A DNA stretch of 64,000 nucleotides from Spirosomataceae bacterium (GTDB taxonomy: Bacteria > Bacteroidota > Bacteroidia > Cytophagales > Spirosomataceae). The position numbers and the translations under genes are program-made. The stretch spans positions 2,585,235 through 2,649,234 of the forward strand of contig JAXLVB010000001.1 of the NCBI GenBank assembly GCA_046329195.1. The letters run 5' to 3'. Positions 3,421 through 62,224 of this stretch are shown here, piece by piece (position 1 is the first letter of the stretch; each line of letters opens with the position of its first letter). Below the pieces are notes generated by a model. It was not told where the DNA came from. It did no database searches and was given only the letters and a program-made list of their open reading frames with translations.

Positions 3421-4400
3421 AATCATTTCGCTGGGGAATTATTGGCTTGGGGCGTATTGCCCGAAAATTTGCTGAAGGGCTACAGTTTGTACCCAATGCA
3501 CAATTGTATGCTGTAGCCTCTCGTGACCTCACCAAAGCACAAGCCTTTGCCGCTGATTTTCAGGCGACTCATGCGCTAGGTAGTTATGAAGCCATTACCC
3601 AGCTTGGCGACGTGGACGCCATTTATATTGCTACGCCCCATTCGGAACATCATGCTAATACCTTGATGTGTCTCAAGGCGGGCATCCCCGTACTGTGCGA
3701 AAAAGCGTTTGCTTTTAACTTGGCACAAGTACAAGAAATGGTCGGCGAGGCCCAAAGCCGTAAGGTTTTTTTGATGGAAGCCTTATGGACACGATTTTTG
3801 CCTGCCACTATCAAAACCCTCGAACTCATTGAAGCAGGCGAAATAGGCGAAATCAAACACATCTCAGCCGATTTTGGCTTCCTAGCTGATTACAACCCTC
3901 ACGGGCGTTTGTTCAATCCTTCTTTAGCCGGAGGTTCGTTGCTTGATATTGGTATTTATCCTTTGCTCATCAGCAAGTTTTTGTTAGGTAACCCTACCCA
4001 ACTCAGCGCCGTAGCTACCTTGACCGAAACAGGGGTTGATATGGCCTGCTCTATGGCCGCCCAGTTTGCTAACGGAGCCACAGCCACCTTGTTTTCGACA
4101 CTGGCTGCTCGCACCGACACTACAGCGGTTATTTATGGTACTAAAGGCAAAATAACGCTCCATACACGCTTTCACGAAGCCACAGCTTTATCCCTCCAGA
4201 TTACTGGACAAGAAGCACAATTGATTCCTTGCGAGCGTATGGGCGATGGCTACTGTTACGAGGCTCGCCATGTGCAAGAATGTTTGACTCAAGGGCTCAC
4301 CGAAAGCCCAGTAGTACCACTACAATTCAGTGTCGAACTCATGGCTATCATGGACGACATTCGCAAGCAGGTTGGGGTTGTGTACCCAGCTGATAACTAA
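3417..4400 (+). CDS. Gfo/Idh/MocA family NAD(P)-dependent oxidoreductase (cytoplasmic)
   Basis: Rossmann N-terminus WGIIGLGRIARKF and the EKA/EKP motif; its start overlaps the serC stop by 4 bp. Confidence 0.85.
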   Translation: MKSFRWGIIGLGRIARKFAEGLQFVPNAQLYAVASRDLTKAQAFAADFQATHALGSYEAITQLGDVDAIYIATPHSEHHANTLMCLKAGIPVLCEKAFAFNLAQVQEMVGEAQSRKVFLMEALWTRFLPATIKTLELIEAGEIGEIKHISADFGFLADYNPHGRLFNPSLAGGSLLDIGIYPLLISKFLLGNPTQLSAVATLTETGVDMACSMAAQFANGATATLFSTLAARTDTTAVIYGTKGKITLHTRFHEATALSLQITGQEAQLIPCERMGDGYCYEARHVQECLTQGLTESPVVPLQFSVELMAIMDDIRKQVGVVYPADN

Positions 4401-9532: not shown

Positions 9533-10861
9533 TTATTTTACAATGGAAATCTCTACTTCTGCCGATGACTTCTGCCCCTTGATGTCGGTCAACTCATACT
9601 CAAACTTATCGGTACCAAGATAGCCTGCCTTCGGAAAATAAAAGATTCGTAAGTTCTCTGCCTTTACCAATCCCACATTGGCGGGGCTTTTGATCGTGAT
9701 TTCTTTGAGGTCGGTACATAACTTATCGTTGAGCCATACCACAATCTCCACGCTACCCGAAGGCGCTCCAAATAAGGCCGGATACGGTAAACTGGCCGAA
9801 ATCAACGCTTGGTCTTTGTTGGCCACTGGTTTACAGTTAGGGTCTGGTACGTCAACAATAGCCACAATCGCACCTGTTACGCAATTTTTCCCATCTTTAT
9901 CACACACTCGATATTCAAATGTTTCGGTACCCTTAAAAGTTGGCTTAGGTACATACAAAACTTTGTTGTCTTTGGTAATAGAAGCCCTGCCGTTTTGTGG
10001 GACTTTGCTGATACTAATAGGTATGCCTTTGTAGGCGTCACAGAGGTTGTCGTTTCGCAGTACATCTATGGTGATAGATGTATCTTTGAGTGCTTCGGTT
10101 CGTCGCCAGAGAAGGGCATCGGCAATGACGAGCGTTCGACAATCGGTCGGAGTCCCTTCCACAATCACCCGAACAGTAGCCAAGCGGCAGGTAGGTTTGT
10201 CACCAACCGTACAGACTCGATAGATCATCAAATCAGTACCTCTGAAACCAGTTTTTGGCGTATAAACCACCTTGTTTTTAATAATTTCAGCTTTGCCATT
10301 GGTGGGCTGTACTTCTATTCGGAGCGATGTAGAATCTAACGTAACATTACAAAAGCGGTCGTTGGCCAAGACTGGAATCGTTACGGCTACATTTTGTTGA
10401 GTTCGGGCAGCATCGTGCATCGCCCCTGCATTGCAAGGAATCCGACTAGCATCGGGGGTTACAATGAGCCGTACAGTGTCTCGGCGGCTGGTTGAGCCCG
10501 AACCCGTATTAGCATTGACCACATACGTAACGTCATCTTGTATATCTAGTGCCGTAGGGTCTGGAATAAACAAAAGAATCCCTTTGCTATCTATAAAAGT
10601 GAGGTCACCAAAAGTAGGTTGACTTTCTAACTTAAACGAACCCGCAGTGGTTAGGTTAGATTGCGCCAATACATCAATCGCCAACGGTTCATTGGGCAGA
10701 GTATAGTAATTATGGCTATCAAGTACTTTTGAAGACTCTCGAGCAGACGATACGGGTGGTACATCTTGCACAATAGTGTCGCAGGCCTGTATCAAAACAG
10801 ACATCAGTAAACCAGCTCCGTATGCGTATTTTTTAAAATTCATAAAAGTATACAACATCAA
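9533..10861 (-). CDS. Lipoprotein with about four repeated Ig/cadherin-like β-sandwich domains
   Basis: Lipoprotein-type signal ending …LIQAC. A recurring motif appears in each repeat: Y(V/T)PK(P/T)(T/G)F(K/R)GT(E/D)…(Y/E)(R/E)V(C/T)D. Confidence 0.55.
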   Translation of the reverse strand: MMLYTFMNFKKYAYGAGLLMSVLIQACDTIVQDVPPVSSARESSKVLDSHNYYTLPNEPLAIDVLAQSNLTTAGSFKLESQPTFGDLTFIDSKGILLFIPDPTALDIQDDVTYVVNANTGSGSTSRRDTVRLIVTPDASRIPCNAGAMHDAARTQQNVAVTIPVLANDRFCNVTLDSTSLRIEVQPTNGKAEIIKNKVVYTPKTGFRGTDLMIYRVCTVGDKPTCRLATVRVIVEGTPTDCRTLVIADALLWRRTEALKDTSITIDVLRNDNLCDAYKGIPISISKVPQNGRASITKDNKVLYVPKPTFKGTETFEYRVCDKDGKNCVTGAIVAIVDVPDPNCKPVANKDQALISASLPYPALFGAPSGSVEIVVWLNDKLCTDLKEITIKSPANVGLVKAENLRIFYFPKAGYLGTDKFEYELTDIKGQKSSAEVEISIVK

Positions 10862-11052
10862 GATAGACAGGCATTGCTATCAAAAGGTTGCATAAAAGAC
10901 CAATCGTTAAGGTTTATTCGGTGGTTTTTTATGGTAAAAAGCTAATAGACAGTCGTTTAGGTTTTATTGTGGTTCAGTAAATAATATGAATTACTTTTGC
11001 GAAAACTTTCTGTTAATGCAGCTCGGTTGGCCATATAAAATCAAGCAGATTC

Positions 11053-11496
11053 ATGGGAATTTTGGTGAGAGAAGGAACAATTGACGAAGTAGTTTCGACG
11101 TACCCTTTCATTCCTGAATTGGAAAATCCTTATCAAAAAGCTGATTACGAAAGTAGGTTGGCAGTATCGCCCAACCACTTGGTATTGGTGGCAGTGGAGG
11201 GCGAACGTGTAGTTGGCTTTAAAGTGGGCTATCAGCGTGATTATGACGGCAGCTTTTATTCATGGATGGGTGGGGTGTCTAACCAGCACCGTCGGTTGGG
11301 TATAGCCCAGCGGTTAGCCGATGCCATGGAAGATTGGTGTGTGTCAAAAGGGTATCATACCTTACGTTTCAAGACCCGAAATCGGCACAAGGCGATGTTG
11401 CGATTTGCACTGTCCAATGGGTTTAATCTGATTGGCGTAGAGCCTGCCGAGCAAGTAGAAGAAAGTCGAATTTGGTTAGAAAAACGACTAAGCTAA
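11053..11496 (+). CDS. GNAT family N-acetyltransferase
   Basis: 147 aa with acetyl-CoA binding motif QHRRLGIAQRL. Confidence 0.75.
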   Translation: MGILVREGTIDEVVSTYPFIPELENPYQKADYESRLAVSPNHLVLVAVEGERVVGFKVGYQRDYDGSFYSWMGGVSNQHRRLGIAQRLADAMEDWCVSKGYHTLRFKTRNRHKAMLRFALSNGFNLIGVEPAEQVEESRIWLEKRLS

Positions 11497-11506
11497 AGTT
11501 CACAGT

Positions 11507-12268
11507 ATGAGTGCATTATTGCTGAAACTACTATTGATTCCAACTGTTATTGGTGCTGTGACCTTAGCAAGCCGCCGATGGGGCGCTACAGTTGGTGGTT
11601 GGTTGTCGTCGTTGCCGTGGGTGGCTGGACCGATTTTGCTGTTTTTGACGTTAGAACAGGGTACAGATTTTGCCGCCCAAGCCGCTCTCAATGCCCTAGC
11701 TGTGGTGTTGGGATTGGTGGGTTTTTGTGTGGCCTATTTGCTGTTGGTGAGCCGATTTGGCTGGTTTATCTGTTCAGTTGCAGGTTTTGTTACCTATTTG
11801 TTGTTGGCAATGGTTATGAGCTGGGTAATGCCCCTCAACATTTGGCTTGTTTTTGGGATAGCTATTGGAAGTATTTATATGGCTATCAGGCTATTTCCAG
11901 TTGCTCAGGTCGCCACTGCTGTGGTCAAAGCCCCCCCTTTTGATATTCCGCTTCGGATGGTGGTTGCTACTGGATTTGTGGTTGTCGTAACCGTTTTAGC
12001 CCAGGTATTGGGTGTGCAATGGAGCGGATTACTCACGCCTTTTCCCGTAATGACCTCTATTTTAGCCATTTTTACCCATTATCAGCAAGGTCCTGAAGCT
12101 ACCATCCGAATCATCAGAGGTTTGGGGTATGGGTTGTTTGGATTTGCCACTTTCTTACTTGTAGTCTGTTTGATGCTCACACAGTTTTCGGTATTCGTAA
12201 CGTTTGCCGTGGCCTTTGTTGCAGCTATTTTGATAAATATGCTTACCTTTCGATGGATTCGGGCTTAA
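11507..12268 (+). CDS. Polytopic inner-membrane protein of unknown function
   Basis: 253 aa, strongly hydrophobic, with about 7 predicted TM segments. It starts 11 bp after the GNAT gene. Confidence 0.55.
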   Translation: MSALLLKLLLIPTVIGAVTLASRRWGATVGGWLSSLPWVAGPILLFLTLEQGTDFAAQAALNALAVVLGLVGFCVAYLLLVSRFGWFICSVAGFVTYLLLAMVMSWVMPLNIWLVFGIAIGSIYMAIRLFPVAQVATAVVKAPPFDIPLRMVVATGFVVVVTVLAQVLGVQWSGLLTPFPVMTSILAIFTHYQQGPEATIRIIRGLGYGLFGFATFLLVVCLMLTQFSVFVTFAVAFVAAILINMLTFRWIRA

Positions 12269-13406: not shown

Positions 13407-13503
13407 AGTCGCTACCAGTAAGTCTTGATTCAAAAGAGGTTCTACTTTTAAACAGAAGTTAGTGATGAGAAACCTCTTTCCCTTGTTGTTAGTAGATAAC
13501 TGA

Positions 13504-14388
13504 CTACGCTTTCCGCTTGGTGTTTTCTCGGATGGATCGCTCGATTTCGTCCCACATTTCGTTAGGGACTTCTTCTAAGAAACTAAATTGACCTGCACCT
13601 TTGAGCCATTCGCCTCCATCAATGGTGATTTCTTGCCCGGTGATGTAGGCCGAGTAATCTGACATCAGGTAGGCGGCCAAATTGGCCAATTCTTGATGCT
13701 CGCCCACACGCCCCAGTGGGATGCGTTTCTCCATGTTGAACAAATGCTGCATAGGGGCTGGAAACAGACGGTCCCAAGCGCCCTTAGTAGGGAATGGTCC
13801 TGGAGCAATGGCGTTGAAACGGATGCTATGCCTGCCCCATTCTACAGCTAATGAGCGAGTTAGGTTAAACACTCCCGCTTTAGCAACAGCCGAGGGAACG
13901 GTATAGCCTGACCCCACGTAGGCATAGCTAGTGATGATACTGAGGACGGTTCCGGCTTGTTTTTGCTCAATCCAATGCTTGCCAACAGCCAAGGTGAAAT
14001 TAACAGTGCCTTGCAACACAATGCCAATGATACTCTCAAACGCCTTGTGCGAAAGCCGCTCCGTTGGGCTAATAAAATTCCCCGCAGCATTGTTAACCAG
14101 GCCATGTATAGACCCAAAACGGCTCAGCGTAGCCTCCAGTACTTGCATGACCTCTTCGTATTTGCGAACATCGCAGGGTACGGCAAGTACCTGACCGCCC
14201 GTTTCGGTCATAAGCTCTTGGGCAGTTGCCTCGATGACGTCAATTTTACGACTACAAATGACAACATTGGCGCCCAGTTGTAAGAAATAACGAGCCATAG
14301 ACTTCCCTAAGCCTGTGCCTCCTCCGGTCACGATGATGGTTTTACCCGAAAGCGCCCCGTCTTGGAGCATTCCTTGTGTATAAAGCAT
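13504..14388 (-). CDS. SDR-type 2,4-dienoyl-CoA reductase-like protein (DECR family)
   Basis: GKTIIVTGGGTGLGK, and NNAAGNF plus S…Y…K spacing typical of peroxisomal/mitochondrial dienoyl-CoA reductases. Confidence 0.8.
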   Translation of the reverse strand: MLYTQGMLQDGALSGKTIIVTGGGTGLGKSMARYFLQLGANVVICSRKIDVIEATAQELMTETGGQVLAVPCDVRKYEEVMQVLEATLSRFGSIHGLVNNAAGNFISPTERLSHKAFESIIGIVLQGTVNFTLAVGKHWIEQKQAGTVLSIITSYAYVGSGYTVPSAVAKAGVFNLTRSLAVEWGRHSIRFNAIAPGPFPTKGAWDRLFPAPMQHLFNMEKRIPLGRVGEHQELANLAAYLMSDYSAYITGQEITIDGGEWLKGAGQFSFLEEVPNEMWDEIERSIRENTKRKA

Positions 14389-14438
14389 GTGGCGTAAATG
14401 ATTTTGTGGTTTGTTTGAACAAACAGCAGGGTGATTAT

Positions 14439-15254
14439 TTAGTTTTCAAAGGTGGCTGGCTGCTTGGTCATGGATGCCTGAAAAGCGGCCATTAAGTCAG
14501 AAGAATAGAAAAAGGCGGCGTTCCAGTTGGCGATAAATTGCAGACTTTCAGCTACCGAGTGATCACGAGCATAGAGTAGATTTTGCTTCGTCCCTCGAAT
14601 CGAAAGTGGCGATTTGCTGGCAATCGTGGCGGCGATTTTCATAACTTCGTCGAGCATGGTGGCTTTGTCTGGAAATACCCGATTGACCAAGCCGCAGCGT
14701 TCGGCTTCAGTAGCACCGAGGTTGCGCCCCGTGTAAGCCAATTCTCGTACCAAGCCTTCCGAAATCAGCTTGGGCAAGCGTTGGAGTGTTCCTAAGTCGG
14801 CTACCATACCCATGTCAATTTCTTTGATGCAGAAATATGCATCGGCAGTACAATAGCGCATGTCAGTGGCAGTAACGATGTCCACGGCTCCACCAATACA
14901 ACCACCATGAATAGCCGATAGAATGGGTTTAGTGCATTGTTCGGCTGCATTGACAGTATTTTGGAGGTCGAGCAAAAACTTTCTGAATTTCTCCCGTTTG
15001 CGCCCCTCGCAAGGGTCTTGGGTTTTTTGTCCGGTGGACATGAGCATGGATAAATCAATCCCTGCCGAAAACAACTTGTCACCGGCTGCACTCAAGACCA
15101 CTACTCGTACTTCGGGGTTTTCGTGGCAGTGGAGTAGTGCATCACGGAGGTCTTCCCACGCTTGTTCATTGAGGGCATTCGCTTTTTCAGGGCGATTCAG
15201 CTCCAAATGCGCTATATGGTTATGGATGCTTAGGTTAAAATGTTGAAAAGCCAT
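14439..15254 (-). CDS. Enoyl-CoA hydratase/isomerase family protein (Δ3,5-Δ2,4-dienoyl-CoA isomerase, ECH1-like)
   Basis: Crotonase-fold motifs: LNRPEKANAL, VVVLSAAGDKLFSAGIDL, GGCIGGAVD. Confidence 0.8.
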   Translation of the reverse strand: MAFQHFNLSIHNHIAHLELNRPEKANALNEQAWEDLRDALLHCHENPEVRVVVLSAAGDKLFSAGIDLSMLMSTGQKTQDPCEGRKREKFRKFLLDLQNTVNAAEQCTKPILSAIHGGCIGGAVDIVTATDMRYCTADAYFCIKEIDMGMVADLGTLQRLPKLISEGLVRELAYTGRNLGATEAERCGLVNRVFPDKATMLDEVMKIAATIASKSPLSIRGTKQNLLYARDHSVAESLQFIANWNAAFFYSSDLMAAFQASMTKQPATFEN

Positions 15255-17850: not shown

Positions 17851-18750
17851 TTAAGCACGAACGGCAAGATGGTGTTGAAGGAACAGGTCGAGTTCGGATA
17901 GGGCTTTGGTCCATAAGGTCGCTTTGAACGACTTACGGAAAAACCCAAAATGGTCAATGGACTTAACGCCCAACGACTGAGGGTTCATTTCCTCAATGGA
18001 TACACCTTTTTCACTCTTGACGTGTTTCCAAAACACCTCAACCGCTTGCCGATTGGCAATTTTATCGTCGGTAGCCCATAGTACTTTGATAGGGAATTTG
18101 ATGGCATGATACCACCCTTTGGCAGGCCCATCGTTGTAAAATTTGGGGTCGAAAAAATAATCAGGCACACTGCACCACGCTCGCCATTGATTGGTGATAC
18201 GAGCAGGGAGGTCTTCCATCAACCCAAATTGTTTGACAGCCGTGTAGCCATACAGCCAATGGGTAAGAGGCCGAACAATCTCAAAAAAGAAATGGGTACG
18301 CAGCCGATACCCCAAGGGCATAAATCCCCAATACCCCGACGACGACGCCACCGCCAGTAAGCCAATAGCCTGATTGACAGTAGGCATCAGGGCGAATTTC
18401 TGCCCCCCTACGCTATGCCCCATCAGGATAATGGGGAGCGAGGGAAATTGTTGTTGAAGAAAAGCCATAACGCCAGTCATATCTTTTTGAGCCCAATCTA
18501 AGTATTCAAAATCGCAATGCTTCAAGCCCGAAGCCGGTTTTGAGGCGCCGATACCTCGGTAGTCAAACAGGCAAACGGCGTAGCCCTCCGTAGCCAAAAA
18601 TTGGGCAAAGGCACTGTAGTATTCTTTCGGAACGGCAGTGGCTCCGTTGAGTTGAACAAGGGCTTTGGGTTGGTCGGGTACCAACAAGAGGCCGCCCAAG
18701 GGGTAGCCGTCGGTGGCAGGAATAGTAATTGGATTCGTGTTGTAATTCAT
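17851..18750 (-). CDS. α/β-hydrolase fold protein (start placed at MNYNTNPITIPATDGYPLGG)
   Basis: GHSVGG nucleophile elbow and α/β-hydrolase topology. The long ORF's N-terminal extension is hydrophobic junk. Confidence 0.8.
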   Translation of the reverse strand: MNYNTNPITIPATDGYPLGGLLLVPDQPKALVQLNGATAVPKEYYSAFAQFLATEGYAVCLFDYRGIGASKPASGLKHCDFEYLDWAQKDMTGVMAFLQQQFPSLPIILMGHSVGGQKFALMPTVNQAIGLLAVASSSGYWGFMPLGYRLRTHFFFEIVRPLTHWLYGYTAVKQFGLMEDLPARITNQWRAWCSVPDYFFDPKFYNDGPAKGWYHAIKFPIKVLWATDDKIANRQAVEVFWKHVKSEKGVSIEEMNPQSLGVKSIDHFGFFRKSFKATLWTKALSELDLFLQHHLAVRA

Positions 18751-18752
18751 TT

Positions 18753-18772
18753 TACCAAACGTTCGTTTGGTA
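18753..18772. promoter_or_regulatory. Second copy of palindrome TACCAAACGAACGTTTGGTA, 2 bp upstream of the hydrolase ATG on the minus strand. Putative TetR operator.
   Basis: The identical 18-mer CCAAACGAACGTTTGGTA is at 6443–6460. Confidence 0.5.
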
Positions 18773-19319
18773 AAGAACGCTAAAAAATAAAATCCAATGC
18801 AAGTTTTTGGTAAAAAAATGATGCTTGCATACGATTTTGAAGGAGTATTACACTTACCCTCCTTGATTTTGTCATAGAAATCAACGGAAGAAAAGAAAGT
18901 AAGGTGCATACCTTATGCCACCGATTTACCTGATAGGGGCACGAAAGCACCAAAACCACCTAAATTTATGCCCATGTAACCACCCAAGGGTTTGATGGAG
19001 CAAACTTTGCCAACTAAAAAGCCCCTTAGCTAAGTTGGATATATGAAAATATTTGTGTATTCTTGGAAAGCTATTCGTAATATAGAAGGTAGGCAAAGCG
19101 AAAATAAATCGCACTAGATGAACGAGTAGCTATAGCGGAAATGAACGCAAGTTTTTAAAATTTAAACGCAAGGGTTGCGTTTATTTGGATGTTATTGGCA
19201 ACCGTAGGACGACCACGCAACAAGCCACAGAGTGACGAAACAGTGCAGGCGACTAAAAGCAATAACAAAACGACCTAAATAATATTCTATCTTTGTATAT
19301 GCAAAACCATAGGTAAATT

Positions 19320-20372
19320 ATGACAATAGAAGAACTTGCAGAGAGCATATATGAAGTTATTAAGGACTACAGAAATCACGACAATATTTTTATTTCTCAA
19401 CAATATATACTTGAATGGGCGGAGCAATTTGAAGATGATAGACTGCTTGTTTTGACAGAGCTGAATAAAATAATTAAAGAAACATACGTTTCAAGGGAGA
19501 AGGCAAAAGAATTTGTATTCGAGCATCTTCTTGAGTATTTGAAATTATACAAATACTCAAACATTTCAACATTTTTAATTGATACAGAATTTTTAGACAT
19601 CCAACAACCACATAAAAGTCAACCCTCAATTTTATACATATTGGAAGAAGTTTTAAATGAAAAATTTCAAGATTCGTATATAAGATACAAGAATTATCCC
19701 AAATTAAACTATGTTTATTTTGATGATATTCTTGCTTCGGGCAGCACTATTGGGAGAGATTCAATAAATTTCTTGAATAGGGTAGATTCATCAGGAAAAA
19801 GGTTTGATCAAAAGGTGCAAGACAATGAGATAAAATTTTCAATCAGCGTATTTTGTTTACACACTTGGGGATTTGAATTTCAGAAATTCAGAATTCAGAA
19901 ACAATTTAGCGACAAGGTGATGAAAAAAATAAATTGGTTTTGGAATTACGAAATTCAAAATCACGCAAGGTTCAACAACCAAAAACTTAATATTGCAAAA
20001 CCTGTAAAGGGAAATAATATAAAGATAAATGGTTATTTGGAAAATTTACCCGCAACTAAACATGAAGATTACGCATACAGGAAGGCAAGTACCCCAACAA
20101 CAGAACAGTTTTTCACATCTGCGGGCAACAGAATAAAATTTGAAAATATTTTGACTGAAAAAGGAATAGATATAATCAGTATGATACAAGGCGAAGTAAA
20201 ACCAAATATAAGACCATTGGGATTGATAAACCCACAATATAAAATATTTGGGTTAGGAACTCATTTTTTTACTTGGCGTAATATTCCCAACAATTCACCT
20301 TTGGTATATTGGTGGGAAGTACACGGGCATAATTGGAAACCATTATTTTCTGTCGCAAATAGAGGGAATTAA
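19320..20372 (+). CDS. Hypothetical protein with a type-I phosphoribosyltransferase-like PRPP-binding motif (NYVYFDDILASGSTIG), inside an AT-rich island. Candidate toxin/effector.
   Basis: The motif [VIL]x[VIF]DD[IL][IL][AS][ST]G[ST]T matches the PRTase P-loop, as in PyrR VILIDDVLATARM in this same window. The gene is strongly AT-rich with atypical codon usage, and a TAtcTTTG −7-like box lies 25 bp upstream. Confidence 0.5.
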   Translation: MTIEELAESIYEVIKDYRNHDNIFISQQYILEWAEQFEDDRLLVLTELNKIIKETYVSREKAKEFVFEHLLEYLKLYKYSNISTFLIDTEFLDIQQPHKSQPSILYILEEVLNEKFQDSYIRYKNYPKLNYVYFDDILASGSTIGRDSINFLNRVDSSGKRFDQKVQDNEIKFSISVFCLHTWGFEFQKFRIQKQFSDKVMKKINWFWNYEIQNHARFNNQKLNIAKPVKGNNIKINGYLENLPATKHEDYAYRKASTPTTEQFFTSAGNRIKFENILTEKGIDIISMIQGEVKPNIRPLGLINPQYKIFGLGTHFFTWRNIPNNSPLVYWWEVHGHNWKPLFSVANRGN

Positions 20373-20393
20373 AAAAAAGTTTAATTTAGCATC

Positions 20394-21011
20394 ATGAAGC
20401 CGAGCGTAAGGGAATACCAAATCAAAAATGTCATTACGTTTGCAAAGACAGACGGACATTTTGGAGCCTTGTCAAATATGGCACCGGGATTTAATTTGTT
20501 CATTAACGAAGTTAATATTCAAAGTTCCGAAATATTATATCAAGCATGTAGATTTCCATTGTTTCCTAATATACAAGAAGAAATAATTAGGACACAAAAT
20601 CCAATGAACGCTAAAAAAATTAGCCGACAATATATTCAATATAGTCGTCAAGATTGGGACACTGTAAAGTTTAAAATTATGAAGTGGTGTTTAGAAGTTA
20701 AGCTAATTCAAAATTTTGACAAATTCTCAAATATACTTCTTTCCACTGACGACAAAACAATAGTTGAGTATTCTAAAAAAGATGCTGTTTGGGGTGCAAT
20801 ATTAAAAGACGACAAGAGCACTCTTATTGGAAAAAACGCTTTGGGGCGACTTTTAATGGAATTAAGAGAAAAAGTCAAATCAGGCGATATAAATAAATCA
20901 ACAGTTATTCTTCCACCAAATATTCCTGCATTCTTATTGTTCGGAAATATGATTGAAGACGTAAGGAGTGACGAGTACTTCATACTTGACTTAGACGAAA
21001 TCTACGCATAA
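20394..21011 (+). CDS. NADAR (YbiA/DUF1768-like) domain protein
   Basis: GHFGALSNMAPGFNLFINEVNIQSSEILYQACRF matches the NADAR core (LSNF…F…S.EHyfQA.KF). It lies 21 bp downstream of the PRTase-like gene. Confidence 0.7.
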   Translation: MKPSVREYQIKNVITFAKTDGHFGALSNMAPGFNLFINEVNIQSSEILYQACRFPLFPNIQEEIIRTQNPMNAKKISRQYIQYSRQDWDTVKFKIMKWCLEVKLIQNFDKFSNILLSTDDKTIVEYSKKDAVWGAILKDDKSTLIGKNALGRLLMELREKVKSGDINKSTVILPPNIPAFLLFGNMIEDVRSDEYFILDLDEIYA

Positions 21012-21037
21012 GAACGGCAGTCCATAACAGGCGTAAC

Positions 21038-22771
21038 TGTTGCACAACTAGCGAAAAGTGTCATGGCAGACCTTCATAACTAATTTCTAACAGGGGGGAG
21101 CTTTGGTATGGCCAACCTGTGTTGAAAATTTAGAACCCTTCTTGTCGAAGTTATAGAAGCCGTTTTGCTCCATTTTTGCCCATACAAACAGACTTCTTCC
21201 CTAATCGACAGCGCTTGCGCTACGGGCTGAACCTTTTTACGCTCAAAGCGCAAATACTTCTGCAAGTTGTAGCTCAGCGCTGCCATCAGTACGTGCTTGT
21301 TGGCCTGTGACATCCCTCGGGTGTTTACCCGCCTCCTATTCATAAAATTAATCAAGGTGCCCAGCACTGGTTCTACCGTCCGTGAACGTATCTTGCTTAT
21401 CCGATTGGCATACGCTCGATGCTTGCTCAGTTTCTCGTGCATTCGGTCGTAGTAGGGCTTGTCGATGCTCTCTTCCAACTTCTTGTACTTGGTGACTCTC
21501 CCACAGCACACCTCTCGCAGGGAGCATGATTTACAGATGCTTTCGCTTCTCCGGTACTGACGCTTGGCGTAGCCTTTGCTATCGGTCTTGATGCCTTTAA
21601 ATGTTAGTATCGCTTGCCGCCCCCCTGCTGTATGCATTCGTATTGGTCGAGTTCGGAATTATAAATAAAGCCTTCTCGTTCTGGCTTGTACTGTCCAAAA
21701 TTGGGTATATACGCATCTATACCATGCTCTTCACAATATTTCAAGGCTTTCCCTGAGCTATATCCTGCATCTGCTGCTAGTTGGTCTATTGATATAGACA
21801 CACTACCAAGATTTTCAATCGTTTGGTCAAGTATTTCTGCCAGATTCTCGCTGTCTTTGCTGCCTGCTGTACCTGCACAAGCTCCCGTGATGACATGGTG
21901 GGCATCATCCACTGCAAGTTGTCCACTATAATTTAGTTGACGGGCTTTACCTGGTTTTACTGAAATTTTGGCCTCCGGGTCGGTAGGTGAATAATGCGTG
22001 TGGTTGGATAAAAACTTGGGACGTATTAAATGACCATTTTCATCCACTCTTGATGAATCCGTATGGCCGGGCATGTCTTTATATTCCTCCTTTTTCCAGT
22101 CATGGTGTTGTTCTACCAACTTTTTGCGGGTACTCGTAACTTTATACTCAGAACCTTCTTCAAGCTCATTTATATAAGCACTTGCATCTTCTATAACTTC
22201 CTTTTCTACCAAACTATCCATACTCGCATTGGCTTTGATAAAGGCACTATCTACACACTGTCGTTTGCCTCTCACCATTCCTTTGGCTACGCATTTCTGC
22301 AATATCTGCTGAAATAACGCTAAAAACACCTGCTCACCATAAAGTTGACGTGTACGGCTAATCGTACTATGCCATGGCAATACTTCATCAATATCATATT
22401 TTAAGAACAAGCGTATGGCAAGGCTATCAGAACAGAAGGCTATCAGCTTTCGGTCTGATCGGATCGCCGAAGCGATTGATGTTGTTGAGATAACCTACAA
22501 GTAGTATCTTAAAGAAGACGACAGGGTCGATTGACTCTTGACCTTCTCTTCCATAATATTGGCTCGTAGCTCCATAGAGATACTCCAAGTCAAGAACCGT
22601 GTTGAGCTTGCGATAGTAATTGTTAGTACTGACCAAGTCTTCCAGATTGACTTGATAAAATTCTTTCGGACTGTAGTTTTTTCTGCCTTGCATACTGCTA
22701 AAATACAAAATAGACCTCAGATTTTCAATCTTTTTAGTTACTTTTGATGTACTTGAAGTAGTTGTGCAACA
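21038..22771 (-). mobile_element. IS element (IS1182/IS5-like) of 1734 bp bounded by perfect 13-bp terminal inverted repeats TGTTGCACAACTA / TAGTTGTGCAACA. No obvious target-site duplication.
   Basis: The IRs at 21038–21050 and 22759–22771 are exact reverse complements of each other, and they enclose the transposase ORFs. Confidence 0.7.
21080..22708 (-). pseudogene. IS1182/IS5-family DDE transposase split into three frames (22427–22708, 21604–22410, 21080–21637)
   Basis: The N-terminal InsH-like segment reads YYGREGQESIDPVVFFKILLVGYL. The middle DDE segment follows, then a C-terminal segment (GTLINFMNRRRVNTRGMSQANKHVLMAALSYNLQKYLRF). The three pieces are separated by two frame changes. Confidence 0.75.
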
Positions 22772-22922
22772 AGCACATCGGTTTTGTACAAGTGGGGCTG
22801 ATGGAATAAATTCAACATTTGTAATTCTATTCAGCTTTTGTGCTAAATTTTAGCTGACTTATTTCAAAACCCCACCTGCACAAAGCTGTAAACCGTTACC
22901 TGTAATTTTAAACAACATACAC

Positions 22923-23144
22923 ATGAAAAATATATTCTTACTACTGACAATACTCTCACTTTTATTTTCTCTTTACTTCCTTTATGAAAGGGCTGATATA
23001 TTTGTTGAAATTTTTAGAGGAAGACCATTCAATCAAATTCCTTTAAATGAATTAATTAAACCAACACTACTAGTAGCTCTAGGATTCTTCTTTCTTTATA
23101 TCTTTCGTAAACGACCAACAAAAACTCAAAACAATGAAAAATAA
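22923..23144 (+). CDS. Small predicted membrane protein (2 TM)
   Basis: 73 aa, hydrophobic, AT-rich; a weak call. Confidence 0.3.
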   Translation: MKNIFLLLTILSLLFSLYFLYERADIFVEIFRGRPFNQIPLNELIKPTLLVALGFFFLYIFRKRPTKTQNNEK

Positions 23145-23721
23145 ACTGATACTTTCTGTATTGCTCGTACTCTCAACTTTGACATATGGTTATGGACAAA
23201 CAAGTGCAGAATACACATCTGGCATTTCACAATTCCTAAACTGGATTTCTGAGTTAGACAATGTTTTATTAAATATTACTGACAAAGAAAAACTTAAAAC
23301 CATAGACCGTGAGTTAGGGTATGCGAGCTATGACATAAACCGAATTGCTTGGCAAAAGGAATATTTAGCCCTAAGTATTACCAGTATGAAAAACGCTAAA
23401 GAGGAAGATAAAATTGACGAATTAAGGCCTATAGTTAATGACCTAATTAATGATGTAGATAAACTAATCTCAAGACTTTGGACTATTAAAGGAGAGTTGT
23501 CACAAACAGACCAGGCAGCAGTTGACAAGATTATTCAAGATATAACATCTGGTTACCGAAATAAAAAATTACTGTATTTAAAAGACATAAAGAAATTTCT
23601 ATATGGTGAGAATGTTCCTTTGGCTAAGGTAAAAGAGGAAGCAAAACAGGCCAATGAGGTAGCTGCCGTAGCAACGGACAAAATAAATGAAGCAAGAGAA
23701 AAAATTAAACTTAAACTCTAA
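23134..23721 (+). CDS. Secreted α-helical hypothetical protein (signal peptide MKNKLILSVLLVLSTLTYGYGQ)
   Basis: 195 aa and AT-rich, with a signal peptide followed by a coiled-coil-like K/E-rich sequence. Confidence 0.45.
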   Translation: MKNKLILSVLLVLSTLTYGYGQTSAEYTSGISQFLNWISELDNVLLNITDKEKLKTIDRELGYASYDINRIAWQKEYLALSITSMKNAKEEDKIDELRPIVNDLINDVDKLISRLWTIKGELSQTDQAAVDKIIQDITSGYRNKKLLYLKDIKKFLYGENVPLAKVKEEAKQANEVAAVATDKINEAREKIKLKL

Positions 23722-24027
23722 TGATAACAATAAAAACTACAGGTAACAGCACCTACCCAAAAGGCGGGGTTTCGTGTTCCAAAGACAGTTTTGTGGTAAA
23801 TCAAACATTAGTTTTTCAAATGAATTTTTGTGGTAGATGTCCCGCCCTTCGGATAGCTGCAAAACGTTGGTGGCAACTCCGCCGTAGTCAGTGTCCCCAC
23901 TACACTGCTACCAACTGCCCCCGTTGTGGATAGTATTGGACAGAACACAAAGATAGAAAGCCGTCTGGGCCACCCCGTCTGGGTGACCCTTTCTGGGCGA
24001 CCCCATCCAGGGTAAAAATAATCCACG

Positions 24028-56861: not shown

Positions 56862-57881
56862 TTATGGAATAAAACTAGACCGAGGTCCTCCTGGAGCAAA
56901 CAAAGCTCTTGAGCGATTCATTTGCCCTGTCGTAAACATAAACATACAGGCATCGTCGGTGTAATCCATATAATTCATAAACAAGTCACCTTTAGGACCG
57001 TTGCCACAAGTTATTCTTGGATATCCAGGACAGCCAAAGTTAGGTCCAGCTGCATTAGGAGTATCAGCTACAAGGTCTGTACCCCAACAGTTATTGCCAT
57101 CATCTCCCCAAATGTGGTATAAATTAAGCCAGTGACCAATCTCGTGAGTGGCGGTGCGCCCTTTATCAAATGGAGGTGATAAAAAGCCTACTCGCCCAAA
57201 GAAATTAGGGCCAATAACAATACCATCTGTGGCTGGGTCACCACCTGGAAATTGTGCATAACCCAAGGTATAAGGGTCAATATTTCCAATCCAGATATTA
57301 AGATACTTAGCGGGATTTATAGGGTTTATACCACCTTTGGCAGTTTTCTTAATGGCATCATTGAAACCCCAATAGCTTTTATTGGTTTGTTTACGCACCA
57401 CCCCGGCTAATGCAAACCGAATATTCATCTTGCCAATCAGAGCTTTGAACCCACTCGGGATGTTTTTCAAGTCAGCGTTAGTATTGCCAAAGTCTTCATT
57501 TAAAACATCAATCTGTGACTGAATCTGAGCCATGCTGATGTTTTCTTGCGCAGTTTTCCAAAGTACGTTTACAACAACTGGAATGGTGATTGTAAAACCG
57601 TTTGGTATTGTTGGCGTTACCCCAATTTGATTTGATATTACCTGATTAGTAAAAGATTCTATTTTACTCATGCGGTTTTTCATATCTGGGTCTTCGGCAA
57701 GCTGGGTGTTCAGCACATCCATCGTTGCACAAGAGCGCAGCATTCCAAATGGAACAGCTTCGCCGTCGGTACGAGCTGCAGAGGTAGCAGCTTTCTCCAT
57801 TTCGGAGACAGGCGAGTCGGAACACGAGCCGCCCACATAAAGTAGAGCGAGCAATGTAATTAAGGTTGTAAGTTTTTTCAT
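56862..57881 (-). CDS. Secreted M43 (pappalysin/ulilysin-like) zinc metalloprotease, paralog A
   Basis: Signal peptide and extended zinc site HEIGHWLNLYHIWGDDG (HExxHxxxxxH). Confidence 0.8.
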   Translation of the reverse strand: MKKLTTLITLLALLYVGGSCSDSPVSEMEKAATSAARTDGEAVPFGMLRSCATMDVLNTQLAEDPDMKNRMSKIESFTNQVISNQIGVTPTIPNGFTITIPVVVNVLWKTAQENISMAQIQSQIDVLNEDFGNTNADLKNIPSGFKALIGKMNIRFALAGVVRKQTNKSYWGFNDAIKKTAKGGINPINPAKYLNIWIGNIDPYTLGYAQFPGGDPATDGIVIGPNFFGRVGFLSPPFDKGRTATHEIGHWLNLYHIWGDDGNNCWGTDLVADTPNAAGPNFGCPGYPRITCGNGPKGDLFMNYMDYTDDACMFMFTTGQMNRSRALFAPGGPRSSFIP

Positions 57882-58078: not shown

Positions 58079-59080
58079 TTATTGAACGAAACTGGCTCTT
58101 GGTCCACCTGTTGCAAAAATGGCTCTCGAACGGGTCACTTGTCCTGCTGTAAACATATACATACAGGCATCATCGGTGTAGTCCATAAAGTTCATCCACA
58201 AATCGCCATTAGGACCATTACTACACGATAGTTTCGGAAAGCTCGGACAGCCATAATTTGGACCTGCTGCATTGGGGGTATCACTAACTAAGTCACTACC
58301 TGTACATTTGGTGCCGTCGTCACCCCAAATATGACGTAAGTTTAACCAATGACCTACTTCGTGCGAAGCGGTGCGCCCTTTATCAAAAGGTGCTGATACA
58401 TAGCCAGTTCGCCCAAAGTAATTAGGCCCAATTACTACACCATCTGTTGCCGCCTTGCCTCCTGGGAATTGAGCATATCCCAATATACCTCCACCGATAT
58501 TCCCAACCCACATATTAAGTTTTTTGGTAGGATCGGTAGGATTAAGTCCTCCTTTGTTTGTTTTCTTAATGTCATCATTCGTCCCCCATGATGTTTTGGT
58601 AGTTTGTTTTCGATATACAGCTGATAACACAAATTTAACATTCATCTTACCAATCAAGGGTTTAAATGCAGTAGGTGTTTTGGTCAAATCAGTATTGGTA
58701 TTACTGTAGTCTTCGTTCAAAACATCAATTTGTGACTGTATTTGCGCATCACTAATATTTTCTTGTGTAGTATTCCAAAGAACATTTACTACTACTGGAA
58801 TAGTGATAATGTCGTTAGGACCTAGAGCTGAAGTGCCTACTTTACTTGCTATAATCCGGTTAGTATGGACTTCAACTTCATCCATTTGGGCTTTCAAATT
58901 TGGATTATCTGCCAGTTGTTGTGCTAAAACATCCATAGAAGCACATGCTCGGAGCGTACCAAATGCCCTAGCTGCTGAATGTTCAACGGAGTTTTCGGCT
59001 TCGGTCATGGGAGATTCTGAACAAGAAACCCCTACATACATGAGGGCTAAAAAGCCCATTAAAAGGATGGTTTTTTTCAT
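58079..59080 (-). CDS. Secreted M43 zinc metalloprotease, paralog B (start placed at MKKTILLMGF…)
   Basis: HEVGHWLNLRHIWGDDG. It is about 60% identical in the alignable core to paralog A, with conserved blocks such as IPVVVNVLW and GYAQFPGG. Confidence 0.8.
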   Translation of the reverse strand: MKKTILLMGFLALMYVGVSCSESPMTEAENSVEHSAARAFGTLRACASMDVLAQQLADNPNLKAQMDEVEVHTNRIIASKVGTSALGPNDIITIPVVVNVLWNTTQENISDAQIQSQIDVLNEDYSNTNTDLTKTPTAFKPLIGKMNVKFVLSAVYRKQTTKTSWGTNDDIKKTNKGGLNPTDPTKKLNMWVGNIGGGILGYAQFPGGKAATDGVVIGPNYFGRTGYVSAPFDKGRTASHEVGHWLNLRHIWGDDGTKCTGSDLVSDTPNAAGPNYGCPSFPKLSCSNGPNGDLWMNFMDYTDDACMYMFTAGQVTRSRAIFATGGPRASFVQ

Positions 59081-59282
59081 AAAATGTGTTGTTGTAAGTT
59101 TGAAAATTGAATGTGAAGCCAAGATAGGCATTGTTTCATGATAAATAATTAGCTTCAAAAAAGAATTTATCAATCGGTAAGGGGTTAGAGAGAGGGCAGA
59201 CCGGGTGTAAAAATAAGTCAAAACACGTATCCCCAACGGTTTTTGCGTAAATTGCAGCCCTTATTTACTGTATTGTACAACA

Positions 59283-61328
59283 ATGAGCCATCCAAAAGAA
59301 ATCAAAAGATATACCGTTACGGCTGCCCTAATCTATGCCAATGGCCCTATTCACATTGGCCATTTGGCAGGTTGTTATATTCCGGCGGATATTTATGTGC
59401 GTTATTTACGAGCTAAAGGAGCCGATGTGAAGTTTATTTCGGGTACCGACGAACACGGCGTGCCCATCACCATTCGTGCCCAGAAAGAAGGTACTACACC
59501 TCAACAAGTAGTGGACAAATACTATGCTCAAATCAAAAAATCGTTCGAAGATTTTGGAATTAGTTTCGACACCTATTCCCGCACCAGCAAACCAGTTCAC
59601 CACGAGGTTTCGCAAGACATGTTCTTGAATTTGTATCACAAAGGCCAGTTTGTAGAAGAAGTAACGGAGCAGTATTACGACGAAAAAGCGCAGCAATTTT
59701 TAGCCGACCGCTACATCGTAGGTACATGCCCAGTCTGCGGCAACGAAAATGCCTATGGTGATCAATGCGAGCGTTGCGGTAGTACACTCAGCCCTACCGA
59801 ATTGAAAAACCCTCGTTCGATGCTAAGTGGCGAGCCTCCTGTGATGAAAGCCACTAAAAACTGGTACTTACCACTCGACAAAATGCAACCCGAATTGGAG
59901 GCATACGTTAACTCGCACCCCGAATGGAAAACCAATGTGATGGGTCAAGTTAAATCTTGGCTTAACGACGGTCTCAAGCCTCGTGCCATGACCCGTGACC
60001 TTGATTGGGGTATTAAAGTGCCCCTACCCGATGCCGAAGGCAAAGTCTTGTATGTGTGGTTTGATGCCCCTATTGGTTACATTACGTTTACCAAAGAACT
60101 CGTTGGCGAGGGTTGGGAGCGCTACTGGCAAGGTGATGACACCAAGCTTGTGCATTTTATTGGTAAAGACAACATCGTATTCCACTGCCTGATTTTTCCG
60201 GCCATGCTCATGGCCGACGGTCGCTACAAATGGGCGGATAACGTGCCTGCCAACGAGTTTATGAATCTGGAAGGTGACAAAATCTCAACCTCACGTAACT
60301 GGGCCGTGTGGCTGCATGAATATTTGGAAGAATTTCCAGGCAAGCAAGACGTACTGCGCTATGCCCTGACTGCCGCCGCCCCCGAAACCAAAGATAGTGA
60401 CTTCACTTGGGGCGATTTTCAGGCTCGTAACAACAACGAACTGGTGGCGATTTTGGGTAACTTAGTCAATCGGGCTGTGATTCTTACGGAGAAAAACTTC
60501 GATTCTAAGGTTCCGGCTAAAGGTCAACTTACAGCCATAGAACAAGAAACCCTAGCCGCCTTGGCCGAAATGCCTGCCAAAATAGGCGAAGCAGTCGAAA
60601 ACTACCGCTTCAGAGAAGGGCTTGGATTGTTGATGGATGTGGCTCGTCTTGGTAATAAGTATTTGACCGATACGGAACCTTGGAAAGCCATTAAGACTGA
60701 CCCTGCCCGTGCTGCTACTATTCTGAATACTACGCTTCAAATCGCAGCTAACTTGAGTATTTTGTGTGAACCGTTTCTACCCTTCACTGCCCAAAAAATC
60801 CGAGACATTCTTCACCTCGAAAAAGGGTTGCTGTGGGCAGATGCTGGAACGTTCGACTTATTAGACGCTGGTCAACCTGTTGAAAACAAAGGACTTCTGT
60901 TTGAGAAAATGGAAAACGAAGTCATACAAAAACAAATAGACAAATTACACGAATCGAAACGAATGAATGAGTTAGCTACCAAGCCGGTAACGCCTGCTAA
61001 AGAAGTAATTCAATACGATGATTTTGCCAAAATGGATATTCGGATTGCGACTATTAAGGCAGCAGAACTGGTACCCAAAAGTAAAAAATTACTCAAACTT
61101 ACCCTCGATACAGGCTTGGATACTCGCACGGTACTGAGTGGGATAGCCGAACATTATTCGCCCGAAGAGGTGGTTGGCAAGCAAGTCTGTTTGTTGGCCA
61201 ACTTGGCCCCTCGCAAAATGATGGGTATGGAAAGCCAAGGCATGATTCTAATGGCCGAAGATCGTGACGGCAAATTAGCTTTTGTTCAACCTTCGTTTGG
61301 AGTTTGGAACGGCGGAACGGTTAGTTAG
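59283..61328 (+). CDS. metG: Methionine--tRNA ligase with C-terminal tRNA-binding (EMAP/Trbp111-like) domain
   Basis: HIGH motif (PIHIGHLAG), zinc knuckle CPVCGN…CERCG, KMSKS-like (KISTS), and a C-terminal tRNA-binding domain. Confidence 0.95.
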
Positions 61329-61514: not shown

Positions 61515-61985
61515 TTACAAAGATGGCACCAGTGTGGTCACCTCAATGCTTTCTAACTCAACACTTGGCGTGGCAAAATTGTTCACGTCAATTGCCCATA
61601 AAAAGTTAATGGTTCTTGCTGTAAAATTGAGGTTTTGTTTCCAAGCCTCAGCTTCTTCGCCACCAATTTTGCTTAACTTTTCGTTTAGCTTAAGTACTGC
61701 AAGTTTGAACTGATTCCTTTGGTTGGCGTCTAATTTCAAAATTGCTGTGGGCTTTTGATTATATAACGTAACAACTGCTAAAAAGTCACTCCATTCTGTC
61801 TTTTTTGTGAAGCGCTTTGCATTGTTGAGCATATAAGCTTCAAAATCTTTTTCGGTGCCTTTGGCTAACAACTTCACTGAACTAACTTTCTTAAAAGTGG
61901 TATTGCTATAAGAAGTAGAACCGCTGGCAAACGCAGTGCTTGATACTACCATCAAACACACTGCAAATTTAAAGAACTTTTCCAT
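61515..61985 (-). CDS. Secreted hypothetical protein (156 aa, signal peptide MEKFFKFAVCLMVVSSTAFASG)
   Basis: ORF with an internal Met start and signal peptide. Confidence 0.5.
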   Translation of the reverse strand: MEKFFKFAVCLMVVSSTAFASGSTSYSNTTFKKVSSVKLLAKGTEKDFEAYMLNNAKRFTKKTEWSDFLAVVTLYNQKPTAILKLDANQRNQFKLAVLKLNEKLSKIGGEEAEAWKQNLNFTARTINFLWAIDVNNFATPSVELESIEVTTLVPSL

Positions 61986-62224
61986 GATATTTACAATTTT
62001 TTTGTCCGATTGACGCTGCAAATATCACGGAATAATTCTAATTTGTCAAGTTTACACTTATCCAGAATTTAAAATATTATTCTAATCACATTCCCTAAAT
62101 TAACATATTTCACAAATTATATATTGCGAATATATTAAAAATTAAACATATATTTGGTTTAATATAAATTACTATAGGTAAAATTTCAAATTTGAAAAAT
62201 CTTAAAATTCTTTAAAAAGTACAA

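Follow-up and report, generated by a model that had tools for sequence, protein, structure and literature searches.

Integrons are arrays of same-strand gene cassettes in which each cassette ends in an attC site, an imperfect and bulged palindrome of 57–141 nucleotides (nt) with RYYYAAC and GTTRRRY boxes. Crossover takes place at G/TT, and an attI site lies beside the integrase gene, which is divergent from the cassettes. Orphan arrays are classed as CALIN when IntegronFinder detects at least two attC sites with no integrase nearby. Integron cassettes often encode defence systems, as established for Vibrio (bioRxiv 10.1101/2024.07.02.601686). A survey of complete genomes with IntegronFinder 2.0 found a single complete integron in Bacteroidetes, in Salinibacter (PMC9024848), and a review lists the Bacteroidota among the phyla with integrons (PMC8618304). 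Here we analysed a stretch of 64,000 nt from a Spirosomataceae bacterium (the window; GenBank GCA_046329195.1, contig JAXLVB010000001.1, positions 2,585,235–2,649,234 of the forward strand) and an AT-rich segment that it holds between an α/β-hydrolase gene and a LysR gene. We consider it likely that ~18.84–23.87 kb of this chromosomal window is a decayed integron-like gene-cassette array, whose first cassette carries a gene pair of the DS-32 anti-phage type. No account of such Bacteroidota arrays was found in the literature searched; one may exist elsewhere.

The content of DS-32 itself is already known. The DefensePredictor study validated a two-gene system of E. coli composed of a phosphoribosyltransferase (PRTase) and a NADAR protein (bioRxiv 10.1101/2025.01.08.631726; Science PMC13092281). 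Protection against phage has been shown only for the E. coli proteins, WP_000097610.1 with WP_032260665.1 (bioRxiv 10.1101/2025.01.08.631726).

An earlier note, made from the letters of the window, had described a single horizontally acquired island with a sharp drop in GC content from ~18.93 to ~23.72 kb. The drop is real and statistically distinct. The window as a whole has a GC content of 0.455, and 1-kb windows outside the region average 0.463 (standard deviation (SD) 0.034), against 0.317 for 19264–21026 (z ~ -4.2 relative to the rest of the window) and 0.327 for 22790–23767. In a sliding window, values fall to 0.31–0.33 at 19.0–21.0 kb and 0.32–0.34 at 22.5–23.9 kb, with 0.44–0.50 on both flanks. 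GC content at third codon positions (GC3) is 0.288 for the PRTase gene, 0.301 for the NADAR gene, and 0.162 and 0.281 for two small genes, p73 and p195, compared with 0.491 ± 0.051 in 32 long open reading frames (ORFs) elsewhere, a deficit of ~4 SD (3.7–6.4). What did not hold is the continuity of the drop, as an insertion sequence (IS) at 21038–22771 has a near-host GC content of 0.436 and splits it into two blocks.

These blocks also differ in their closest relatives. At the nucleotide level, block 1 shares 88% identity with the metagenome contig L096 (19264–21026; 30% GC) and 83% with Fluviicola sp. SGL-29 (19314–21005; L091), while block 2 (22896–23736) is 78% identical to contigs L097 and L099 of Vicingaceae metagenome-assembled genomes (MAGs; 31% GC). 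In L096, Fluviicola and Vicingaceae (30–33% GC) the genes match their surroundings in composition, unlike here. The neighbouring LysR gene and its IDH partner form a pair conserved across Bacteroidota (80 loci), in which the best LysR match reaches 75% amino acid identity among loci from the species representatives retrieved. The genes of the segment, the hydrolase gene and the DinB genes were found within 10 kb of LysR–IDH in none of these 80 other loci. The composition, the 78–88% identity to low-GC Bacteroidota and the absence of the genes from other LysR–IDH loci thus bear out horizontal acquisition. Because the two blocks have different closest relatives, we read them as separate arrivals, and the single island becomes a mosaic of two separately acquired cassettes and an IS.

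That the segment is ancestral and merely AT-rich, for instance because its genes evolve fast or are weakly expressed, is scarcely credible. In its favour, every contig of this organism recovered from SRA (several runs) and ENA (one assembly) has the segment at 100% identity, and an empty site could not be shown for want of a close relative. Against it stand the identity to distant low-GC taxa, far above that of the flanking housekeeping genes, the GC3 deficit, and hallmarks of mobile elements at both ends.

Proposed cassette boundaries and recombination sites

In intact relatives, the platform comprises a gene for an Xer/IntI-like tyrosine recombinase, an attI-like site ~150–200 nt downstream, and then cassettes on the same strand. 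The cassettes each close with an imperfect palindrome (~55–150 nt; ~130 nt for the main subfamily), whose inverse core is NNNNAAC and whose core is GTTNNNN. We propose that they enter and leave as circles by recombination at G/TT, and the inverse core should therefore be complementary to the first bases of its own cassette.

The repeat that led to this proposal was recognised by reading the intergenic regions of the metagenome contigs L101 and L096 and of the window, where one copy follows each same-strand gene or gene pair. It opens with a 5′ box NNNNAAC followed by AGCAC, closes with a 3′ box GCAAA(A/C)C followed by GTTNNNN, and measures 55–150 nt. In the window, the 125 nt after p195 (23744–23868) matched a region upstream of a homologous gene pair in L101.

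Cassette 2 has the clearest boundaries. It spans 22896–23866 on the plus strand (971 nt) and holds p73, p195 and an attC-like site, its limits being set by the start of homology and by core complementarity. Homology to Vicingaceae L097 and L099 begins exactly at 22896, the base after the G of a G/TT core, and the inverse core AGGTAAC (23740–23746) is the exact reverse complement (7/7) of the core at the cassette's own start, GTTACCT (22895–22901). Integron cassettes, which circularise and recombine at G/TT, bear this signature. The attC-like site itself (E2, 23740–23872, plus strand) closes with the core GTTGGTG (23866–23872). It is up to 95% identical to metagenome copies (94% without the 20-mer used to select them), its arms are complementary with z 3.4, and it scores 131.8 bits with a covariance model, R1, whose training set included both E2 and the rejoined site of cassette 1 described below. 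In the 64-kb window R1 finds only 22770–22901 and 23741–23872, plus a reverse-strand echo of the latter. Contigs in Logan end at 23768–23773, which implies that 23744–23797 is repeated elsewhere in the samples.

Cassette 1 (19192–22895, plus strand) comprises the DS-32-type pair and an attC-like site; it measures 3704 nt, or 1970 nt without the IS. On the right it ends with the G of GTTACCT (22895); its left boundary is the least certain of the coordinates. The attC-like site is split by the IS. The 5′ part (21022–21037, plus strand) consists of tandem inverse-core boxes, CCATAAC and GCGTAAC, and the 3′ part (E1, 22772–22901, plus strand) ends in the core GTTACCT and scores 74.8 bits with R1 (22770–22901). 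Deleting 21038–22771 restores the family consensus GTAACAGCAC, and the arms of the rejoined site are complementary with z 5.4, a value reached by 0 of 300 shuffles.

Upstream of cassette 1 lies an attI-like site (19173–19198, plus strand), GGTTGCGTTTATTTGGATG followed by TTATTGG, with the predicted crossover between G19191 and T19192. It shares 22 of 26 bases with a site ~190 nt downstream of the recombinase gene in the array contig L198. Independently assembled Logan contigs from the same samples end at 19192 or start at 19163, and this 30-nt overlap places an assembly-graph branch within 1–2 bases of the predicted crossover. A perfect 8-bp hairpin, AAACGCAA-GGG-TTGCGTTT, is found upstream of the crossover (19144–19186) and is preceded by a second AACGCAAG; the right arm of the hairpin is part of the conserved attI-like sequence. 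These elements could be recombinase-binding repeats.

At the left edge we identified the relic of the C-terminus of an array tyrosine recombinase (18901–18996, plus strand). It retains box II, HxLRH, and the tyrosine motif GH..TT.IY.H, and it is broken by in-frame stops and an internal deletion. Its translation reads KVHTLCHRFT, two stops, GHESTKTT, one stop and IYAHVTTQGFD, compared with VHTLRHSFAT...GHESSKTTEIYTHITTKGFD in the intact protein. A tblastn search with the L198 recombinase gave 75% identity over 20 residues (E 1e-4 for the whole window), and the query rec210 matches 18841–18993 in the frame of the relic. The relic sits ~180 nt upstream of the attI-like site on the same strand, which is the expected place, strand and spacing. 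We had taken 18972–19046 for a further, short attC-like element and now read it as part of this relic. The hydrolase ORF (17851–18909, minus strand, 352 amino acids) overlaps the relic on the other strand with its first 53 codons. Met54 (start 18750) opens the conserved part of the hydrolase, and the resulting version of 299 amino acids is not on record as a called gene; the 352-residue call in public assemblies probably starts too far upstream.

The earlier note had reported no tRNA or integrase gene at either edge and had left the insertion mechanism unclear. ARAGORN finds no tRNA in the whole window, the edges have no Rfam match to a non-coding RNA, and no intact integrase is among the ten ORFs scanned with Pfam; the left edge does, however, hold the recombinase relic at 18901–18996. 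Flanking direct repeats of a classical island, which the note had proposed to look for, do not exceed chance. The route of insertion can now be read as a cassette array with its sites, an attI-like site and a recombinase relic.

The events, and recombination at these sites, are inferred as follows. Two cassettes would have been captured from low-GC Bacteroidota, one with the DS-32-type pair and one with a small membrane protein and a secreted helical protein. Later, an IS of the IS1182 family would have entered the first attC-like site and the recombinase gene would have been reduced to its last 30–50 codons, which would freeze the array unless a paralogous recombinase elsewhere acts in trans. 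As the window holds no intact recombinase, nothing here is demonstrable as active.

A generic genomic or defence island that came in one piece by another route, through an IS or recombination in the flanks, with the repeats as passive intergenic repeats of the donor, is decidedly improbable, though it would account for the IS and for the lack of an intact integrase. The Fluviicola copy of the DS-32 pair does sit in a context like that of a defence island, next to a type I restriction–modification (R-M) system and an integrase. On the other hand, the window has one IS copy only, and it lies inside a repeat rather than at an edge. The blocks differ in their closest relatives (L096 and Fluviicola versus Vicingaceae), the boundaries of homology coincide with repeat cores, the relic and the attI-like site mark the edge, and cassettes elsewhere obey the complementarity rule at P ~1e-20, as described in the next section.

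Intact platforms and their relation to integrons

The 20-mer that starts E2 (TAACAGCACCTACCCAAAAG) occurs in at least 120 metagenome contigs at JGI, with a mean GC content of 0.358, and 72 of 84 distinct repeat copies have the same length. In these public contigs, we compared the four variable bases of the upstream core with the reverse complement of the next downstream inverse core. The two agree perfectly in 25 of 52 cassettes, or in 24 of 46 non-redundant ones, compared with an expectation of 4.4% for random pairing and 10 of 160 for pairing within the same site (binomial P ~1e-20). R1 also finds copies on which it was not trained, in L101 and in the Arachidicoccus genome L224.

Structure was assessed with a hand-defined hairpin on 32 copies because RNAalifold and the folding of single sites were unconvincing; no consensus structure came from RNAalifold when nine divergent sites were aligned with MAFFT. 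In the hand-defined hairpin, 91.2% of cells pair, versus 85.4% when columns are shuffled (none of 500 shuffles reached the observed value) and 23–47% when the arms are slid against each other. Compensatory CG/GC swaps occur at two pairs, and bulged positions are conserved in the consensus. These conserved bulges and compensatory changes are compatible with recombination of a folded single (bottom) strand with extrahelical bases, as in integrons, but do not prove it.

Seven of the at least 120 array contigs encode an IntI-like tyrosine recombinase, although in three of them no more than C-terminal fragments or a pseudogene is present. The recombinase gene lies directly upstream of the array and on the same strand in all five mappable contigs, one of which has a pseudogene, and in the complete Arachidicoccus ginsenosidimutans genome (CP015971.1). 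Sites resembling attI follow the recombinases of L198, L167, L159 and L224, and in all four the first cassette obeys the junction rule at 7/7. In CP015971.1 (L224), the recombinase gene is followed by the site GTTGCGTATATTTGAGAG, continuing TTATAGG; the first cassette, which carries a type II R-M system, has the inverse core CTATAAC (7/7), and the second cassette also obeys the rule at 7/7.

In the array contig L101 (1–12921) we observed HigB/HTH, Fic, Phd/YoeB, two Gp49/HTH pairs, RNase_A_bac and a p195 homologue. With few exceptions these genes lie on one strand with an attC-like site after each, an array rich in toxin–antitoxin (TA) genes, like those of chromosomal integrons. The array contig L167, in its oriented form, contains a 352-residue ORF twice (10803–11861 and 13411–14469), on the opposite strand within the array and with identical flanks; it looks like another IS that multiplies within arrays.

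The array recombinases best match TIGR02249, the integron integrase model, in NCBIfam, with 177–223 bits in two stretches against a cut-off of 265, and in an alignment with IntI1 and VchIntIA they are without ~45 residues at the IntI-specific insertion. At least ~7,900 homologues are found at E ≤ 1e-30. The names of their sources are all Bacteroidota, and their public names are XerC, XerD and site-specific integrase.

The likeness to integrons therefore has to be set against definite differences. On the side of likeness are same-strand cassettes, AAC/GTT-bounded imperfect palindromes with bulges, crossover at G/TT, an attI-like site by the recombinase, an inverse core that matches the cassette's own start, TA and defence cargo, and a uniform repeat family of ~130 nt, within sites of 55–150 nt. 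As judged from sequence, the attI feature is present, as a conserved site downstream of the recombinase with the first cassette at 7/7 in four of four. Unlike in integrons, where it is divergent, the recombinase gene points the same way as the cassettes, and its product scores below the curated threshold and is without the IntI-specific insertion. The RYYYAAC/GTTRRRY consensus is also often departed from (for example AGGTAAC and GTTGGTG), with only AAC and GTT invariant. We have filed the locus as integron-like and not as an integron, because an IntI is found neither here, where a relic stands in its place, nor in the intact relatives.

An orphan array with two R1 sites in 64 kb resembles a CALIN, and one could suppose an ordinary one, with true attC sites and a canonical IntI encoded at another place in the genome, the Xer-like recombinases that neighbour arrays in other contigs being bystanders. 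Integrons have exactly these AAC/GTT cores and palindromic arms and follow exactly this cassette rule, the recombinases have TIGR02249 as their best model, and integrons are reported in Bacteroidota (PMC8618304). We nevertheless regard this explanation as unlikely. A co-oriented recombinase stands directly upstream of an attI-like site in six of six platforms, with the rule obeyed in four of four where it can be checked; the recombinases fall short of the TIGR02249 cut-off and lack ~45 residues at the IntI insertion; and ~600 kb of array contigs contain no IntI-type gene.

Several observations weigh against a decayed cassette array of this kind and temper our confidence in it. No empty site can be defined, because no close host relative is among the genomes retrieved, and the side downstream of LysR is non-syntenic in all 80 loci; no alternative allele was recovered. 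None of the ten ORFs of 294–442 codons in the window that were scanned with Pfam is an intact integrase. At the attI-like site the junction GTTATTG predicts an inverse core CAATAAC, and the tandem boxes CCATAAC and GCGTAAC agree at 6/7 and 4/7; moreover, the homology to L096 sets in only after a further 72 nt of 50% GC (19192–19263) beyond the junction. Taken one by one, the sites have weak minimum-free-energy z-scores (-2.7 to +1.15), and the covariation comes mostly from two subfamilies and therefore represents few independent events. The rule test used sites detected by our own regular expressions, and the IntI1 and VchIntIA references that served as probes and in the alignment are to be taken as approximate. 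Finally, the DS-32 pair occurs outside a cassette context in Fluviicola and Elizabethkingia and is absent from the at least 120 array contigs. The case for the pair as a cassette therefore depends on this locus and L096, where attC-like sites lie upstream of the pair and a different, 38-nt repeat surrounds it.

Beyond the cassette array itself, we tentatively raise the wider possibility that the locus is a dead copy of a widespread, Bacteroidota-specific system of cassette capture, perhaps unrecognised so far, which resembles integrons in its circular cassettes, G/TT crossover, attI-like site and VCR-like repeats of ~130 nt, and uses a co-oriented Xer-like recombinase without the IntI insertion, a part held to be essential in integron integrases. 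Its arrays carry defence and TA cargo, including R-M and DS-32. This platform is the new part and the one worth following up. It offers a concrete route by which DS-32 could move between Bacteroidota families and extends the idea of cassette arrays as defence stores to another phylum, and surveys of integrons keyed on the IntI domain could miss such arrays. If confirmed, it bears on how integron integrases evolved from Xer-type enzymes and on whether the IntI-specific domain is needed for recombination at hairpin-forming sites. Both questions are testable with the recombinase, attI-like and attC-like sequences of CP015971.1.

Cargo of the two proposed cassettes

The gene content given in the earlier note, a PRTase/NADAR pair, an IS with a frameshifted transposase, a membrane peptide and a secreted helical protein, proved correct. 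The first gene of cassette 1 encodes a PRTase-like anti-phage protein of 350 amino acids, DS-32 component 1 (19320–20372, plus strand; PF24390, PRTase-CE, E 1.2e-38). The second, directly downstream on the same strand after a gap of 21 nt, encodes a NADAR-family protein of 205 amino acids, DS-32 component 2 (20394–21011, plus strand; PF08719, E 3.2e-28). The PRTase scores 284.1 bits with NCBIfam NF053875 (DS32_1_antiphage; equivalog cut-off 250) and the NADAR protein 269.4 bits with NF053876 (DS32_2_antiphage; cut-off 240). By these curated models the pair belongs to DS-32, with a predicted role against phage.

Compared with the E. coli pair, the gene order is the same and the sizes are alike (350 and 205 amino acids here, 343 and 203 there), and E. 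coli DS-32A also matches PF24390. The full-length proteins are 24% (PRTase versus DS-32A, E 1e-18) and 45% identical (NADAR versus DS-32B, E 1e-56). The system here differs in its Bacteroidota host and in being carried in a cassette array. A YxDD..SG loop of the type that binds phosphoribosyl pyrophosphate (PRPP) and a C-terminal GLG...FTWRN.PNN.PL..WW motif are invariant in 14 homologues, DS-32A among them. The PRTase has no DarT or ADP-ribosyltransferase (ART) domain in a Pfam scan, which returned only PRTase-CE, and no sequence relative in the PDB. The NADAR protein matches YbiA (2B3W) and the NADAR structure 8BAU, with the SSE and D-x-WG motifs kept in the alignment to YbiA.

No published mechanism for DS-32 was found in the literature searched. 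NADAR enzymes cleave the N-glycosidic bonds of ADP-ribosyl-guanine and of 5-phosphoribosylamino-pyrimidines (PMC11543638, PMC11125620). Since PRTases make phosphoribosyl-N bonds and NADARs cleave such bonds, the pair may, by analogy, be a toxin/antitoxin-like abortive-infection module. The PRTase would make a phosphoribosyl-N adduct from PRPP that is toxic during infection, and the NADAR protein would reverse or restrain it in the manner of an antitoxin. Such a module would resemble DarT1-NADAR (DarTG1) and YarT-YbiA, in which a NADAR N-glycosidase stands beside a putative toxic enzyme that transfers nucleotides or ribosyl groups and which are tied to phage defence (PMC11543638, PMC11125620). 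Only the NADAR part of DS-32 resembles DarTG, as the DefensePredictor study points out (bioRxiv 10.1101/2025.01.08.631726). The partner here has a PRTase fold and is not an ADP-ribosyltransferase, which places the pair outside the ART-NADAR class, and the substrate would be an adduct derived from PRPP rather than from NAD.

Adjacent copies of the two genes also occur in metagenome contigs, in Elizabethkingia anophelis and in Fluviicola, where they neighbour the type I R-M system and integrase. The DS-32 proteins have homologues in phage protein families, phrog_8525 (E 2.8e-22) and phrog_1017 (E 2e-34), and phages therefore also carry relatives of the pair or of its parts. In L096, a direct repeat of ~38 nt (CTTCTCCTTTATTTCAGGCGTAGGGAGCA) flanks the pair at ~2335–2368 and 4285–4318. 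It is distinct from the attC-like family, and the homology of the window to L096 begins right after its first copy.

The -7 promoter consensus of Bacteroidota is TAnnTTTG. The sequence TATCTTTG (19288–19295, plus strand), 25 nt upstream of the PRTase ATG, matches it and is a candidate -7 motif; TATATTTG takes the corresponding place in L096. The PRTase/NADAR cassette would accordingly appear to have its own promoter.

Cassette 2 encodes two small proteins. The first, p73 (22923–23144, plus strand; 73 amino acids), has two hydrophobic, putatively transmembrane helices, and its gene overlaps that of p195 by 11 nt. A small homologue of p73 precedes the p195 homologue in L097, L098, L100 and L103; the two likewise overlap by 11 nt in L103. 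No match to p73 was found above the curated cut-offs of Pfam (a weak YpmT match lies below) or in NCBIfam, PADLOC and PHROG. The second, p195 (23134–23721, plus strand; 195 amino acids; locus tag U0Y10_10920), is a predicted secreted, all-helical protein with a signal peptide. Its invariant G21-Q22 lies at the predicted cleavage site of the signal peptide, which we take to fit secreted proteins of Bacteroidota. It has 21 homologues in MAGs of Vicingaceae and Flavobacteriales at ≤77% identity, the identical copy in the source MAG apart. An AlphaFold2 model (pLDDT 76) contains helices only; Foldseek against the PDB gave no match at E ≤ 0.001, the best (0.09) being generic helical bundles. Searches of Pfam, NCBIfam and PADLOC with p195 found no match, and PHROG a marginal one (E 0.0088).

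The insertion sequence and surroundings

The IS interrupts the attC-like site of cassette 1 at 21038–22771 (minus strand). It is a probable member of the IS1182 family, 1734 bp long, with perfect 13-bp terminal inverted repeats (TGTTGCACAACTA) that occur only at those two places, and it is the single IS copy in the window. No target duplication was seen at its ends, and a megablast search for a plasmid origin gave no match. IS1111-attC elements and group IIC-attC introns are known to target attC sites, and the IS resembles them in lying inside a recombination site, right after the inverse core; it differs in being a probable DDE element of the IS1182 family, not an IS110/IS1111 element or an intron. 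Ends of contigs within the IS ends suggest further copies with the flanks CGTAAC and AGCACATCGGTTT, that is, at the same position in related sites. One insertion and these assembly breakpoints suggest, indirectly, that the IS may target that position in related attC-like sites.

The transposase gene is disrupted at least twice. It lies in three ORF pieces in two frames (22708–22427, 22410–21604 and 21637–21080), and the fragments match NF033551 at positions 88–371 and 375–487 in separate ORFs, each falling short of the cut-off for the whole protein since the gene is broken. The first break comes down to one base within a run of six C (21620–21625), where an added C fuses two pieces into 471 codons. 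It could be an assembly error, and the 185-residue transposase piece is not on record in short-read assemblies. We had considered a 16-nt tandem duplication as the cause of this first frameshift and rejected it, as its removal fails to restore the frame. The other break is close to codon 77 in the N-terminal piece. The GC3 values of the pieces diverge (0.60, 0.36 and 0.48), which could reflect a chimeric IS or the disruptions of the frame.

Beyond cassette 2, the drop in GC content ends before LysR, as had been described, and the final 155 nt ahead of LysR and its stop codon (23873–24027; no strand assigned) are GC-rich (0.555). We take this spacer, which has no match in Rfam, to belong either to the host or to what was once the distal end of the array. 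Within it, shortly after the LysR stop, three tandem 14-nt units (CCGTCTGGGCCACC and variants) are found at 23961–24002, likewise without an Rfam match.

Elsewhere in the window, one other region on the 1-kb scale is comparably low in GC (0.346), at 61.3–62.4 kb. It holds a single gene of 168 codons (61515–62021) whose product has an N-terminus like a signal peptide, between metG (59283–61328) and pth (62225–62785), and is possibly another small insertion. Two adjacent Peptidase_M43 paralogues on the minus strand (56862–57881 and 58079–59236) have GC3 values of 0.37 and 0.31 and sit in a stretch of ~0.40 GC at 57–59.5 kb, and they are candidates for a separate acquisition.

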